DNA of 21,097 bases, taken from IMG/VR virus record IMGVR_UViG_3300006148_000272; one strand, 5' to 3'. Below, one piece after another: positions 9,877 to 15,011 of the stretch. Position 1 is the stretch's first letter, and the number at the start of each line of letters is the position of its first letter. This DNA comes from an uncultured virus (IMG/VR IMGVR_UViG_3300006148_000272) (taxonomy: Duplodnaviria; Heunggongvirae; Uroviricota; Caudoviricetes). A program made the position numbers and the translations under genes. The notes under the pieces are model-generated. The model worked only from the letters and a program-made list of their open reading frames with translations, searched no databases and was not told the DNA's origin.

Positions 9877-10569
9877 ATGATTATCAAAGAATATCGGGAA
9901 TTCAAACCCGTTCAGCAGGCCCTGGGGCTGAAAGCGGATGGTTTGCCGGGGCCTAAAACGCTGGCCGCCGTAGCTCTGAAATTGCGCTGTCATGAAATAT
10001 GGTCCGCGGTCCAGGCCGCCGTGAACGTGACGCCTGACGGCATCCCCGGCCCTGCCACGGCCCGCGGCATTGCCGCCGCCCTGGACATTGCCCTGCCCCG
10101 GTCCTGGCCTGACCAGGCAACCGTCCGGGCCGGTCTTTCCATTTTTGGGCGGCCAGGGGACGAAAACAACCTTGTTTCTATTGTCCCCCCTTATCCTTTA
10201 TATTATGAGGGGCGGCCCGTGAAAACGATCCGCGTGCATCAGGCGATTGCCCAGGACGTTCAGGCGGCCCTGGCGGAAGTCCTGGCCGCGTATGGCCTGG
10301 ACCGGATCCGCGCGCTTCACCTGGACCAGTATGGCGGATCCTACAATGACCGCAGCACGGCCGGAGGCAAAAGCAAGAGCATGCACGCCTGGGGGATTGC
10401 CCTGGACTTTGACCCGGTGCGGAACAGTTATTCCTGCAAAGCCCCCCATGCCGGGCTTTCCCGCCCGGAGTGTGAAGAGTGGTGGCGAATATGGGAAGCC
10501 CATGGGGCCGTTTCTCTGGGCCGTGAACGGAATTATGACTGGATGCACCTTCAATTCGCCCGGCTGTAA
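9877..10569 (+). CDS. endolysin: peptidoglycan-binding repeats plus M15 family Zn peptidase (230 aa)
   Basis: Two PG-binding-like motifs (QQALGLKADGLPGPKT, VTPDGIPGPAT) and M15 motifs SMHAWGIALD and DWMHLQ. Confidence 0.9.
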   Translation: MIIKEYREFKPVQQALGLKADGLPGPKTLAAVALKLRCHEIWSAVQAAVNVTPDGIPGPATARGIAAALDIALPRSWPDQATVRAGLSIFGRPGDENNLVSIVPPYPLYYEGRPVKTIRVHQAIAQDVQAALAEVLAAYGLDRIRALHLDQYGGSYNDRSTAGGKSKSMHAWGIALDFDPVRNSYSCKAPHAGLSRPECEEWWRIWEAHGAVSLGRERNYDWMHLQFARL

Positions 10570-10613
10570 AACAGTAATCTTTTGAATGTCAAAAAATTAT
10601 AGATAAAAATATC

Positions 10614-10642
10614 TTGCAAAAAATCCTGTTTTTTTGTATATT
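10614..10642 (+). promoter_or_regulatory. sigma70-type promoter for the small peptide gene
   Basis: TTGCAA (10614-19), 17 bp spacer, TATATT (10637-42), with AT-rich DNA upstream. Confidence 0.7.
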
Positions 10643-10706
10643 GCCCCTGCCGGTTGATCCGGAGCGGCAGGGAATGAGCCCTGTCGTCAGTAGAAAGGAA
10701 TTAACA

Positions 10707-10721
10707 ATGAATAGTGAATAA
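10707..10721 (+). CDS. 4-codon leader ORF (MNSE*) overlapping the peptide start
   Basis: SD-like AGAAAGGA (10692-99) lies 7 nt before ATG AAT AGT GAA TAA. Confidence 0.45.
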   Translation: MNSE

Positions 10722-10782
10722 AGAAAAATTGATTGAACTAATCATCAAGCTCCTTGAAATGATTCTGATCATGATGGGCTAA
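10714..10782 (+). CDS. putative type I toxin, 22-aa hydrophobic peptide MNKEKLIELIIKLLEMILIMMG
   Basis: GTG 10714 to TAA 10780-82. Amphipathic/hydrophobic helix with its own promoter and a convergent antisense unit. Too short for the ORF track. Confidence 0.7.
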   Translation: MNKEKLIELIIKLLEMILIMMG

Positions 10783-10816
10783 AACAAAGACCCCGGAGGC
10801 GGCAACCTCCGGGGTC
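10781..10816 (-). terminator. intrinsic terminator, mainly for the - strand RNA
   Basis: Perfect 11-bp stem GACCCCGGAGG (10789-99) / CCTCCGGGGTC (10806-16). Followed by TTTGTTTT on the - strand, no U tract on the + strand. Confidence 0.85.
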
Positions 10817-10863
10817 GATCATCAGAAAGGAAAAAGTGAATAATTCCTTGATTGAACTAATCT
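10781..10863 (-). ncRNA. putative antisense antitoxin sRNA (~80 nt)
   Basis: Lies between a - strand promoter and the terminator. Complementary to the SD, start codon and codons 6-10 of the peptide gene through three direct repeats. Confidence 0.7.
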
Positions 10864-10869
10864 GCTTTT

Positions 10870-10897
10870 ACTATGCCCTTTCTTCCGGATTTGTCAA
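10870..10897 (-). promoter_or_regulatory. sigma70-type promoter for the antisense sRNA
   Basis: On the - strand: TTGACA (10897-92), 16 bp spacer, CATAGT (10875-70). Confidence 0.65.
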
Positions 10898-11000
10898 GCA
10901 GGCGTTTGTCATACAAGACTAACGGCGGCGGGTTATCTGGCCGGAACGGCTGTATTTTCCCGTAGATTCAGAACTTTCCCGCGTCTATGACAGTAAAAAT

Positions 11001-11018
11001 TATCATAACGTTATGATA
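11001..11018. repeat. perfect 18-bp palindrome TATCATAACGTTATGATA
   Basis: Read directly from the sequence. Overlaps the stop codon of the 11011..11913 gene. Confidence 0.8.
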
Positions 11019-11913
11019 CTAACCCAATACTTTCTTTAAATATTCTCCTATTCTTTTCATATTCTTCACCGAAAATCAATTTGGGTTCCATATGAAAATA
11101 TCCGCCTTTCCTTAATTCTTCTTCCATTTTGTGTTGTAGTTTATTACAAGAAATTTGTCCCATGATTTGAAGCAGATATTTTTGTCTATCAGAAAAATTA
11201 TCCATAATAGTTAAAAAATACAAATCCTTTTCTATTTCATTAAAAAAATCAGCTTCATTAACATAACGAATTAGAAAGTAAAATTTATTTGACCAGGCAA
11301 GCAAATCATTAAAATTTTGTACAAACAATCGACAGTTCTTTTTATATTCATTTATTTTATCGCTTGAGTTTTGCAAAACCGGTAAATTAACTAATTCACA
11401 ATACTGAATAATCTTTAAACAACTTCTAACATTATCTGCTATTTCATTAAAAATATCAGTTCCAGAATTTCCATTTATCCGTATATTCTTGCTTAAGTAA
11501 TCCAAATATTCCATTTGTTTAAAAAGAAAACTTTCAAATTGCTGAATTTGCATTACTCTGTTTTGCTTTTCAAGTTCATCACCTTGACGCTTCTGTTCCT
11601 CCTTCTGTAAATTCAGTTCTTCACGTTGCAGCGCTAAGTCCTTTCTTTGTAAGAGAATCGTGACAATAAGGCCTATAAACGCAAGAGCGGTAAAAAAAGT
11701 ATTGAGAATGTTGAATGCATTTCCAACTTTATTAAGCTCTTCTGATAAAAAATTTGCCCATATATAAAAGATGACAAACAGCAATAAAATGATGATGAAG
11801 ATATAACGCAGAGTTTTATTCCTCTTACATGTACGGATGAATCGCATCCATACCGCTTGTTCGTCCCTAGATGCCGCTCTTGCTCGCTTAAAAGAATGTA
11901 AGTCCGTGCGCAT
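11011..11913 (-). CDS. putative abortive-infection membrane protein (putAbiC-like, 300 aa)
   Basis: Two TM helices followed by FTALAFIGLIVTILLQRKDLALQREEL...QQFESFLF, the pattern of the 'putative phage abortive infection protein' family. Very AT-rich. Confidence 0.65.
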   Translation of the reverse strand: MRTDLHSFKRARAASRDEQAVWMRFIRTCKRNKTLRYIFIIILLLFVIFYIWANFLSEELNKVGNAFNILNTFFTALAFIGLIVTILLQRKDLALQREELNLQKEEQKRQGDELEKQNRVMQIQQFESFLFKQMEYLDYLSKNIRINGNSGTDIFNEIADNVRSCLKIIQYCELVNLPVLQNSSDKINEYKKNCRLFVQNFNDLLAWSNKFYFLIRYVNEADFFNEIEKDLYFLTIMDNFSDRQKYLLQIMGQISCNKLQHKMEEELRKGGYFHMEPKLIFGEEYEKNRRIFKESIGLVS

Positions 11914-14505: not shown

Positions 14506-14895
14506 TCATGCGTTGTCGTCTGGCTCTTGGGGGCGCGGCATGGGTGGGGTAGAATCCACGATGGATTGAAGAAGGTTGCGGATATGCCTTTCCGCGGCGG
14601 CATAGTCTGACGGATCAATATCCGGGGGAAGAAGGGCTTTCCATTCCTCCGGCGTTAGACGTACGGGAAAAGTAAGAACATCATCATAATTAACCTTTTT
14701 ATTTTCAATAGTTTTTGATTGTTCCATGAGCTGTTGAATGAAAGCAAGCTTCGCTTTGGGTATTGGCGTAGGAGTAGAAGGAGCTAACCAATTATCAACA
14801 GTAGATTTACTAACATAAAGCTTCTTTGCCAACCAGTTACGATCTTTTCCGGCACCCTTTAACCATTTTTTTATGCTTTCAACAGAATAATCCAT
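14506..14895 (-). CDS. CI-like XRE/HTH repressor without a peptidase domain (129 aa)
   Basis: ATG 14895 gives MDYSVESIKKWLKGAGKDRNWLAKKLYVSKSTVDNWL, an HTH. Divergent from the early operon. Confidence 0.75.
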   Translation of the reverse strand: MDYSVESIKKWLKGAGKDRNWLAKKLYVSKSTVDNWLAPSTPTPIPKAKLAFIQQLMEQSKTIENKKVNYDDVLTFPVRLTPEEWKALLPPDIDPSDYAAAERHIRNLLQSIVDSTPPMPRPQEPDDNA

Positions 14896-15011
14896 GCGTG
14901 ACGGTTTACTAAAATCTTGAATAATTAGCAAGGGTGAAAACTGCAATTTCCGAAAAATACGAAATATAGACTTGACGTTTTTTACGATTTTTCATAGTTG
15001 TTAGTCCAGCT
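14896..15011. promoter_or_regulatory. divergent immunity/early switch region
   Basis: AT-rich gap between divergent regulators, with TTGACG at 14972-77 on + and repeated (T)ACGA/CCGA-AAA words. The exact promoters and operators are not resolved. Confidence 0.5.

Follow-up and report, generated by a model that had tools for sequence, protein, structure and literature searches.

What occupies the gap behind the endolysin gene of the uncultured provirus IMGVR_UViG_3300006148_000272? The stretch analyzed here, which we call the window, is 21,097 nucleotides (nt) of this IMG/VR provirus record, the whole of which spans 79 kb, and the gap lies between the endolysin gene (9877–10569, with matches to Peptidase_M15_4 and the PHROG endolysin) and a minus-strand gene (11011–11913). 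It holds a cassette of about 340 bases (10577–10914) in which a gene for a very short peptide and a predicted small RNA gene converge. Comparison with related loci leads us to regard the cassette as probably a type I toxin-antitoxin-like module of a new family; we are more confident of a narrower point, namely that translation of a conserved peptide of 20–22 residues is under antisense RNA control. Production of the two RNAs, translational repression through their pairing, toxicity of the peptide and the role of the module for the phage are inferences from sequence.

Co-varying repeat copies and the predicted small RNA

All of the elements that an initial annotation had proposed for this gap are present where it had placed them. 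On the plus strand, a predicted promoter TTGCAA-17-TATATT (10614–10642, from a consensus scan, with a start predicted near 10649) precedes an open reading frame (ORF1, 10714–10782) for a 22-residue peptide. An 11-bp hairpin follows, in the window a perfect inverted repeat (10789–10799/10806–10816), and a predicted minus-strand promoter faces it from the far side, with TTGACA (10897–10892), a 16-nt spacer and CATAGT (10875–10870). The three repeat blocks that had been described are likewise there, in the same order on both sides of the hairpin: block 1, AGAAAGGAA, at 10692 and 10824; block 2, AGTGAATAA, at 10713 and 10835; and block 3, TTGATTGAACTAATC, at 10729 and 10848, the two copies of block 3 agreeing at 15/15 positions.

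The second copy (10824–10862, located by repeat comparison and assigned to no strand) would be the template for the pairing domain of an 84-nt minus-strand RNA (10781–10864, both ends predicted), the candidate antitoxin. Since the first ~45 nt of this RNA would be transcribed from the downstream copy of the initiation region, they would pair with the initiation site of the peptide gene. The 15-mer TTGATTGAACTAATC occurs at its two places only in the 79-kb record, even with up to two mismatches allowed (a reversed control pattern gave 0 matches), and the duplex predicted between the minus-strand RNA and the window mRNA has an energy of -42.6 kcal/mol (z -7.1); 500 dinucleotide shuffles gave -20.8 ± 3.1, and 0/500 were as strong. 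The repeats thus go beyond chance. A minus-strand RNA of about 80 nt had been proposed to cover the Shine-Dalgarno site and start codon of the peptide gene together with codons 6–10; this predicted duplex, which extends over codons 5–10, bears the proposal out.

The only match of the region in a phage database is Akkermansia phage Moulinsart (ON453896.1; 75% identity across 78% of the query), an induced prophage of Akkermansia muciniphila YL44, as described in PMC10197239. Pattern scans of viral and metagenome collections yielded 19 distinct full cassettes (alignment A3), and at least five pairing classes can be told apart among Akkermansia phages and gut contigs. What the classes have in common is the promoters, the hairpin, the minus-strand promoter block and ORF1 in its 3' half; the segment over codons 5–10 is rewritten from class to class, and identically in both copies, which is the co-variation of repeat pairs that the initial annotation had suggested looking for in related phages. 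In copies 1 and 2 alike this segment reads TTGATTGAACTAATC in the window class, GACCTAATAC in the Moulinsart type, GTGAA(A/T)TGGTACA in the L061 type, GGCA(T/A)TCAATAC in the L064 type and TTGACCTGTTGC in the L087/L093 type. When seven types are compared at 17 positions in register, the identity sum for the cognate assignment of copy 1 (10692–10743) to copy 2 is 93. No permutation exceeds this value and 4/5040 equal it; these four merely swap types that have an identical copy 2.

Cognate duplexes have predicted energies of -34.1 to -44.6 kcal/mol (z -5.3 to -7.4), with 0/500 dinucleotide shuffles as strong in 5/5 types, and in all five the duplex spans the Shine-Dalgarno site, both start codons (that of ORF1 and that of the mini-ORF described below) and codons 5–10. 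An 8 × 8 duplex matrix has the cognate class strongest in 7/8 rows, with other RNAs tying in the rows of the A types. As both copies change together in each class, the RNA predicted from the minus strand stays complementary to its own mRNA throughout.

The predicted promoter of the small RNA, together with a conserved 17-nt upstream block, occupies 10870–10914 on the minus strand (consensus scan); it matches 10/12 consensus positions and is the best such site in a 1-kb scan. The RNA itself has a predicted fold of -34.5 kcal/mol (z -6.2) with a weakly structured 5' pairing domain, and ends in an intrinsic terminator (10779–10816, minus strand) made of an 11–12-bp GC stem at 10789–10816 and a T-run. 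The minus strand has a clear T-run (TTTGTTTTAG). The plus strand has none in the window (GATCATCAG) and a weak one in other types (GATTGTTTAG). With its T-run on the minus strand alone, the hairpin of the window would clearly terminate the small RNA, but not the peptide mRNA. Among the 19 distinct modules all cells of this hairpin are paired (100%), and four stem pairs have two-sided changes. Taken together with two hairpins in the 5' untranslated region (5' UTR) of the peptide mRNA, 98.8% of cells in A3 are paired and seven pairs show two-sided changes, a pairing statistic reached by 0/500 shuffles and nowhere near approached by six slid controls.

L064-type cassettes that are otherwise near-identical have either TTCCAG or CTGGAA as the terminator loop, mutual reverse complements on the same stem (A3 columns 206–211; window 10800–10805). 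This looks like an inversion of the loop, for example by template switching.

The peptide gene and its leader

ORF1 starts with GTG and encodes MNKEKLIELIIKLLEMILIMMG, the candidate toxin. Loss of the ORF or of repeat complementarity in homologues, which the initial annotation had held would speak against its proposal, is not what we see: ORF1 is intact in 62 of 80 loci. Of the other 18, 16 lack the peptide half altogether, a nonsense codon interrupts ORF1 in one and a contig end truncates it in the last, so that 62/64 loci with the peptide half retain it. Eight peptide variants occur in the 62 loci, namely MNKEKLIELIIKLLEMILIMMG in the window and MIIDWHSIQRLIELLIVLFS, MIKYSDLLQRLIELLIVLLS, MIKYGEMVQRLIELLIVLFS, MIKYIDLLQRLIELLIVLFS, MIKYSDLIQRLIELLIVLFS, MIKHIDLIQRLIELLIVLLS and MIKYIDLLQRLIELLIVLLS. 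Across the last 12 codons of eight nucleotide variants from outside the window, four codons differ synonymously only (GAG/GAA; TTG/CTG/CTT/CTC; ATA/ATT; AGC/AGT) and one shows a conservative F/L change. The window and Moulinsart types are identical at 26/48 nt (54%) over the aligned 3' part, with equal length and stop position, and their BLOSUM62 sum, +31 in frame, falls to -12 and -4 in the two alternative frames, which contain stops. To judge from these substitutions, ORF1 is a real coding sequence, constrained as a protein. ORFs of about 20 residues that start with GTG or TTG escape standard gene callers.

The peptides have 20–22 residues and a grand average of hydropathy of 1.05–1.44, and are predicted to be of a hydrophobic membrane type. 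In 5/7 peptide types the charged residues are predicted to fall within an 80-degree arc of the helical wheel, all 8/8 variants are without proline, and the C-termini read ...VLFS, ...VLLS or ...MMG. An antiparallel "charge zipper" dimer of the sort known from TisB is no more than an idea; the pairs K3-E13' and D6-R10' would fit 6/7 types, but the commonest type (MIIDWHS...) has neither K3 nor D6. The corresponding pattern in the window peptide type is K5/E8/K12/E15.

Upstream of ORF1, the promoter TTGCAA-17-TATATT is kept in loci of the W, M, A and B types, and the C type has TTGATT-17-TATGAT at the same position. Minimum-free-energy folding of the window mRNA gives two 5'-UTR hairpins, both of them upstream of the Shine-Dalgarno site: hairpin 1 is CCGG/CCGG (10650–10662, plus strand) and hairpin 2 is CGGCAGGG/CCCTGTCG (10665–10686, plus strand). 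Three pairs of hairpin 2 have two-sided changes (CGGCAGGG/CCCTGCCG versus CGGATGGA/TTCATCCG), with 95% of cells paired. The Shine-Dalgarno site AGAAAGGAA (10692–10700) is followed on the plus strand by a four-codon mini-ORF, ATG AAT AGT GAA TAA (MNSE*, 10707–10721), which overlaps the GTG start of ORF1; in the window the Shine-Dalgarno spacing is better for the ATG of the mini-ORF than for the GTG. Every class has such a well-spaced ATG opening a mini-ORF of 1–4 codons whose stop overlaps the GTG or TTG or comes shortly after it, be it MNSE*, MT* (ATGACTTGA) or M* (ATGTGA). Preservation of this arrangement by three different sequences suggests that translation of ORF1 is coupled to that of the mini-ORF.

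Distribution and decay of the cassette

The two halves of the cassette are not lost symmetrically. A scan with the peptide codons gave 33 matches, of which two are chance matches in unrelated genes and 31 are true loci, and at 31/31 of these loci, found via the peptide gene alone, the hairpin and TTGACA-16-CATAGT are present. The minus-strand block is also present in 16/16 contigs found via the plus-strand promoter. The RNA half alone, with promoter, pairing domain and terminator, occurs in 16/80 loci and, in an independent scan, in 8/39, and the junction of these orphan RNA halves is exactly the A-run of the terminator. The peptide gene was found elsewhere in 0/4 orphan-bearing records (positive control 1/1).

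Orphans also decay. Their -10 element is mutated to CACAGT or CTCAGT in 4/8 cases, and two of these four have lost the hairpin as well; a mutated -10 is seen in 0/31 ORF1-bearing loci, all of which keep CATAGT. Decay of the peptide gene takes other forms. In one lineage (L017/L062/L176) a GAG codon of ORF1 has become the nonsense codon TAG. In another lineage (L138, L167) the plus-strand promoter is gone, along with both 5'-UTR hairpins, and the Shine-Dalgarno site is weakened from AAGGA to AAAGA; ORF1, the hairpin and the small-RNA promoter are intact, and what is left there looks like a silenced toxin gene. A peptide gene that never occurs without the RNA gene, and an RNA gene that decays as an orphan, form the pattern that would be expected of a toxin and its antidote.

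The cassette is present or absent as a unit. Its distribution was followed in 34 endolysin-anchored loci, consisting of 35 that were fetched, less L036 and L040 (in which the contig ends inside the gene), plus the window. The cassette lies directly after the endolysin stop codon in 18/34 of them; in 15/34 the site has merely a GC hairpin terminator and then the 3' end of hicB, and the remaining locus (1/34) is a distant relative with a different gene at the site. About half of the phages that are otherwise 90–99% identical are thus without the cassette. It is also found away from the endolysin, in the C-type context and in L060, where the left edge AATCTTTTGAGCGTC... is the same, and the right edge is ...TTTGTCAT in every context. 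The cassette is a discrete, movable accessory module of Akkermansia prophages. Two pattern scans of species-representative genomes, covering representatives rather than other strains, gave 0 matches to the minus-strand promoter block or the 3' codons of the peptide, and the cassette is therefore absent from the representatives scanned.

In the window the order of genes is structural and tail genes, endolysin, cassette, minus-strand accessory genes, a regulator-like gene (14506–14946), and methyltransferase and primase-like genes. The minus-strand ORF at 11011–11913 encodes 300 residues with weak, membrane-protein-like Pfam matches and a match to phrog_8999 of unknown function (E 1.9e-9); it occupies the place of hicBA in related phages. 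Across the stop-codon end of this ORF lies a perfect 18-bp palindrome, TATCATAAC/GTTATGATA (11001–11018), which overlaps a weak minus-strand promoter-like site at 11040–11013. Phages of the Moulinsart type have a minus-strand HicA/HicB-like pair immediately to the right of the cassette (L001:3349–4020 in Moulinsart; L005:15–685), annotated in Moulinsart as 'toxin' and 'transcriptional repressor'. One contig, IMGVR_UViG_3300029707_000173, apparently has two HicA/HicB-like pairs, with an orphan small-RNA gene beside the second.

The L087/L093-type cassette converges with an S24 peptidase gene for a LexA/CI-like repressor (L093:541–1029, minus strand; ...VNGHSMEP...), whose stop codon in L093 lies within the conserved ...TTTGTCATGC block upstream of the small-RNA promoter. 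The flank to the left of the C-type cassette (L093:80–240) has a conserved GC-rich stretch and forms a strong hairpin, GCCCCTGACCCGGAGGCCAAGGGC; it gave no Rfam match at gathering score.

Known systems, alternative explanations and biological role

The par locus of pAD1 has convergent promoters, a shared bidirectional terminator and direct repeats, DRa and DRb, that are transcribed oppositely, and pairing of its RNAs hides the fst initiation site, as set out in PMC7472228. The initial annotation had likened the cassette to this architecture, and the comparison holds: the promoters, here predicted, converge; the hairpin, with its compensatory changes, lies between the two genes and is common to both, though as a clear terminator on the minus strand only; oppositely transcribed direct repeats provide complementarity that gives pairing at the toxin initiation region, outside the overlap; and both systems are carried by phages and other mobile elements. 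The T1TAdb preprint (10.1101/2021.04.14.439843) describes a 3'-located antisense RNA that interacts outside the overlap as peculiar to Fst/RNAII and SprA1, both Gram-positive, and the antisense RNAs of Gram-negative type I families as 5'-located or fully overlapped. According to the preprint and PMC7472228, type I families do not cross the Gram divide.

The differences are as clear. Fst-like peptides have a hydrophobic domain, a PXXXG(C) motif and a charged C-terminal tail, according to the description in PMC7472228. Unlike Fst (~33 residues), the cassette peptide has 20–22 residues and neither the PXXXG motif nor the charged tail. Unlike par with its DRa and DRb, the cassette has three repeat blocks; it has an overlapping leader mini-ORF, lacks a conserved 5' stem that sequesters the Shine-Dalgarno site, and its plus-strand T-run is weak or absent. 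Its host is a diderm member of the Verrucomicrobiota, whereas Fst/RNAII is described in PMC7472228 from Firmicutes. The peptide has no significant Pfam, NCBIfam, PHROG, PADLOC or PDB match (toxin families, with E up to 10 for Pfam and NCBIfam), in keeping with the earlier placement of it outside Hok, Ldr, Ibs and Fst. Weak matches to the PDB profile of 7ns1_A (a 31-residue chain, E 0.73), to MotB_plug of Pfam for 1/8 peptides (E 0.053) and to MotB of NCBIfam for 1/8 (E 0.16) were set aside as noise. At Rfam gathering thresholds there is no match in the window or in four related loci, and a scan of 10300–11200 with E up to 10 returned four unrelated weak matches (NsiR1, the best at E 0.2; SNORD108, SQ1002 and RsmY), far below gathering scores. 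The missing motif and tail, and the lack of protein-family and Rfam matches, lead us to place the cassette outside the par family despite its par-like design.

Translation of hok is coupled to that of mok. The cassette is like hok/Sok and Ldr/Rdl in that toxin translation is apparently coupled to a short overlapping leader ORF and in that the antisense RNA covers the initiation of the leader; the same preprint (10.1101/2021.04.14.439843) lists a leader ORF for both families. Unlike those two families, its RNA is encoded 3' of the ORF and pairs in a trans-like manner via repeats, and the peptides are unrelated. More widely, the cassette differs from Hok/Sok, Ldr/Rdl, Ibs/Sib, TisB/IstR1, ShoB/OhsC, Zor/Orz and DinQ/AgrB in the place of its RNA gene, which is 3' of the ORF and has at most the hairpin in common with the mRNA, and no peptide family matches. 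In size the nearest likeness is to Ibs/Sib, with its very short hydrophobic toxin: IbsC has 19 residues and, as reported in PMC8309996, is still toxic at 15 with at least 10 hydrophobic residues, and the cassette peptide, as a candidate toxin, is within that size range. Sib RNAs are described in 10.1101/2021.04.14.439843 as fully complementary, overlapping and spanning the whole ORF. Unlike Ibs, the cassette peptide has a charged stripe, and there is no sequence match between them.

Antisense control is also familiar from phage immunity. In the P1/P7 (c4 RNA) and P4 systems a phage small RNA occludes a ribosome-binding site, and paired changes in RNA and target make specificity classes; the cassette is like these in its ribosome-binding-site pairing and in having paired-change specificity classes among related phages. 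The c4 and P4 RNAs, however, arise by processing from the very strand that encodes their target, and what they regulate is an antirepressor or replication gene rather than a hydrophobic peptide of ~20 residues.

How might such a module work? Transcription from near 10649 would give an mRNA with the two 5' hairpins, the Shine-Dalgarno site, the tiny leader ORF and the 22-codon ORF. As the weak GTG or TTG start overlaps the leader stop, the peptide would probably be made by termination and reinitiation. It would form a hydrophobic helix of 20–22 residues with a narrow charged stripe, and may insert into and damage the inner membrane. The convergent promoter would direct an RNA of ~84 nt ending at the GC hairpin and T-run, and pairing of this RNA at the Shine-Dalgarno site, both start codons and codons 5–10 would block translation and possibly trigger decay.

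Several observations weigh against reading the cassette as a type I module. The peptide carries 3–6 charged residues, its hydrophobic run is uninterrupted for merely 10–12 residues and it has no charged C-terminal tail, features that are atypical of type I toxins. The Shine-Dalgarno site is mostly unpaired in the full-length mRNA of 7/8 types (probability unpaired 0.58–0.80; window 0.17), and a fold that sequesters it is predicted for the window version only among the eight; we therefore see no clear sign of the inert primary transcript that characterizes many type I toxins. The window hairpin has no plus-strand T-run to mark the 3' end of the peptide mRNA, and A-type mRNAs pair with non-cognate RNAs (-32.4 to -34.3 kcal/mol) about as well as with their cognate (-34.1). 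In types other than that of the window the conserved 3' codons of ORF1 overlap a hairpin predicted in the mRNA, and some of the nucleotide conservation could be due to this. Promoter prediction followed consensus rules of the E. coli type, which may not be those of Akkermansia. The loci are phylogenetically non-independent and the viral and metagenome collections may contain the same phages twice, and the counts of complete, orphan and decayed copies are of loci, not independent events. The RNA-library material consists of assembled contigs (22 runs, in four of which contigs of 2.9–8 kb bridge the region); these carry neither starts, ends nor strand and are uninformative on expression either way.

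Antisense control could be real and the peptide still something else, a phage membrane peptide of the lytic cycle that serves lysis timing or superinfection exclusion and is silenced by the RNA in the lysogen. The position of the cassette would suit such a role: it follows the endolysin gene directly, and the first plus-strand terminator-like site thereafter is at about 10938 (10938–10962, from a scan; B-type loci have a clearer one, GCGGCTAATAAGGCCGC and then T6, at the equivalent place). With no plus-strand terminator between, late read-through would transcribe ORF1 together with a perfect complement of the small RNA, and the lysogeny-type minus-strand genes on the far side, hicBA in the Moulinsart type and the S24 LexA/CI-like repressor gene in the C type, could feed transcription of the small RNA. 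A lytic function sits poorly, however, with cassettes away from any endolysin (L060, and the C type with its own different promoter), with its absence from about half of the 90–99% identical phages, and with a peptide gene that decays by nonsense mutation or promoter loss beside an RNA gene that decays only when alone, as for a toxin and its antidote. We consider this explanation unlikely.

Two others dispense with the regulatory RNA. If ORF1 and a second frame, ORF2, were tandem paralogous peptide genes on one plus-strand transcript and the repeats their common 5' ends, this would account for the Shine-Dalgarno-like site and start codon that copy 2 has in every class, for a spacing difference between the copies that is a multiple of 3 in the window, and for a plus-strand terminator beyond ORF2. 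ORF2 (28 codons, 10836–10922, plus strand) is opened by the second repeat copy, but across the conserved block the W, M and A types read it in frame 0, whereas B, C1 and C2 read it in frame 2. M2 has no such ORF, and its length ranges from 27 to 130 codons across types, running antisense into neighboring genes. With neither frame nor length conserved, we reject it as a gene; it has a Shine-Dalgarno site and start codon because the second copy duplicates the initiation region, and is probably a by-product of that copying. Similarity between the copies also stops after codon 10, the minus-strand TTGACA-16-CATAGT and minus-only T-run are kept in 31/31 loci, and paralogy leaves the joint change of the copies in five classes unexplained, which makes this idea extremely unlikely. 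It is very unlikely, too, that the minus-strand element is a mere terminator or 3' UTR of neighboring leftward genes and that the repeats are functionless recombination scars. Loci of the M, A and C types do have a minus-strand gene, hicB or that of the S24 repressor, ending within the conserved block or just to its right, and the hairpin would therefore terminate those transcripts too. Yet the same promoter-like site stands in four right-hand contexts, one of which is the window, with 97 nt between the block and the end of the nearest minus-strand gene; scars would neither co-vary nor coincide, class after class, with a Shine-Dalgarno site and a start codon; and decay of the -10 element is confined to orphans.

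A type I toxin-antitoxin-like module thus remains our preferred reading, and it may serve prophage maintenance or abortive defense, as the initial annotation had suggested. One extension of it, doubtful when taken as a whole, is that the cassette is a switch wired to the decision between lysogeny and lysis and at the same time a currency in which phages compete. Small RNA produced in the lysogen, both from its own promoter and through read-through of lysogeny-expressed neighbors such as hicBA or the CI-like repressor gene, would silence the peptide. On induction, late transcription of the endolysin that goes unterminated would yield the toxin mRNA, and with it a perfect sponge for the small RNA, and would collide with the RNA promoter; the membrane peptide would be released exactly at the time of lysis, or else on loss of the prophage. 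Between phages, pairing classes could behave like incompatibility groups and prevent cross-neutralization of co-resident prophages, and orphan RNA genes could be anti-addiction or cross-immunity elements against the toxin of a competitor.

The full-text literature that we searched, whose coverage leaves out most subscription journals, has no report linking Akkermansia or Verrucomicrobia to a type I system or a mapped small RNA. The par-type regulatory design is already known; what would be new here, as far as sequence comparison can tell, is the peptide family, the leader mini-ORF, the natural specificity classes and the orphan antitoxin-like genes. A design so far reported from Gram-positive bacteria appears here with an unrelated peptide of ~20 residues in prophages of A. 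muciniphila, a much-studied gut commensal. Its pairing classes, orphan RNA genes at various stages of decay and expression-dead toxin-like genes amount to a natural experiment on RNA-RNA specificity and the logic of addiction, and one variant is carried by Moulinsart in an available strain, YL44 of the OMM12 consortium.

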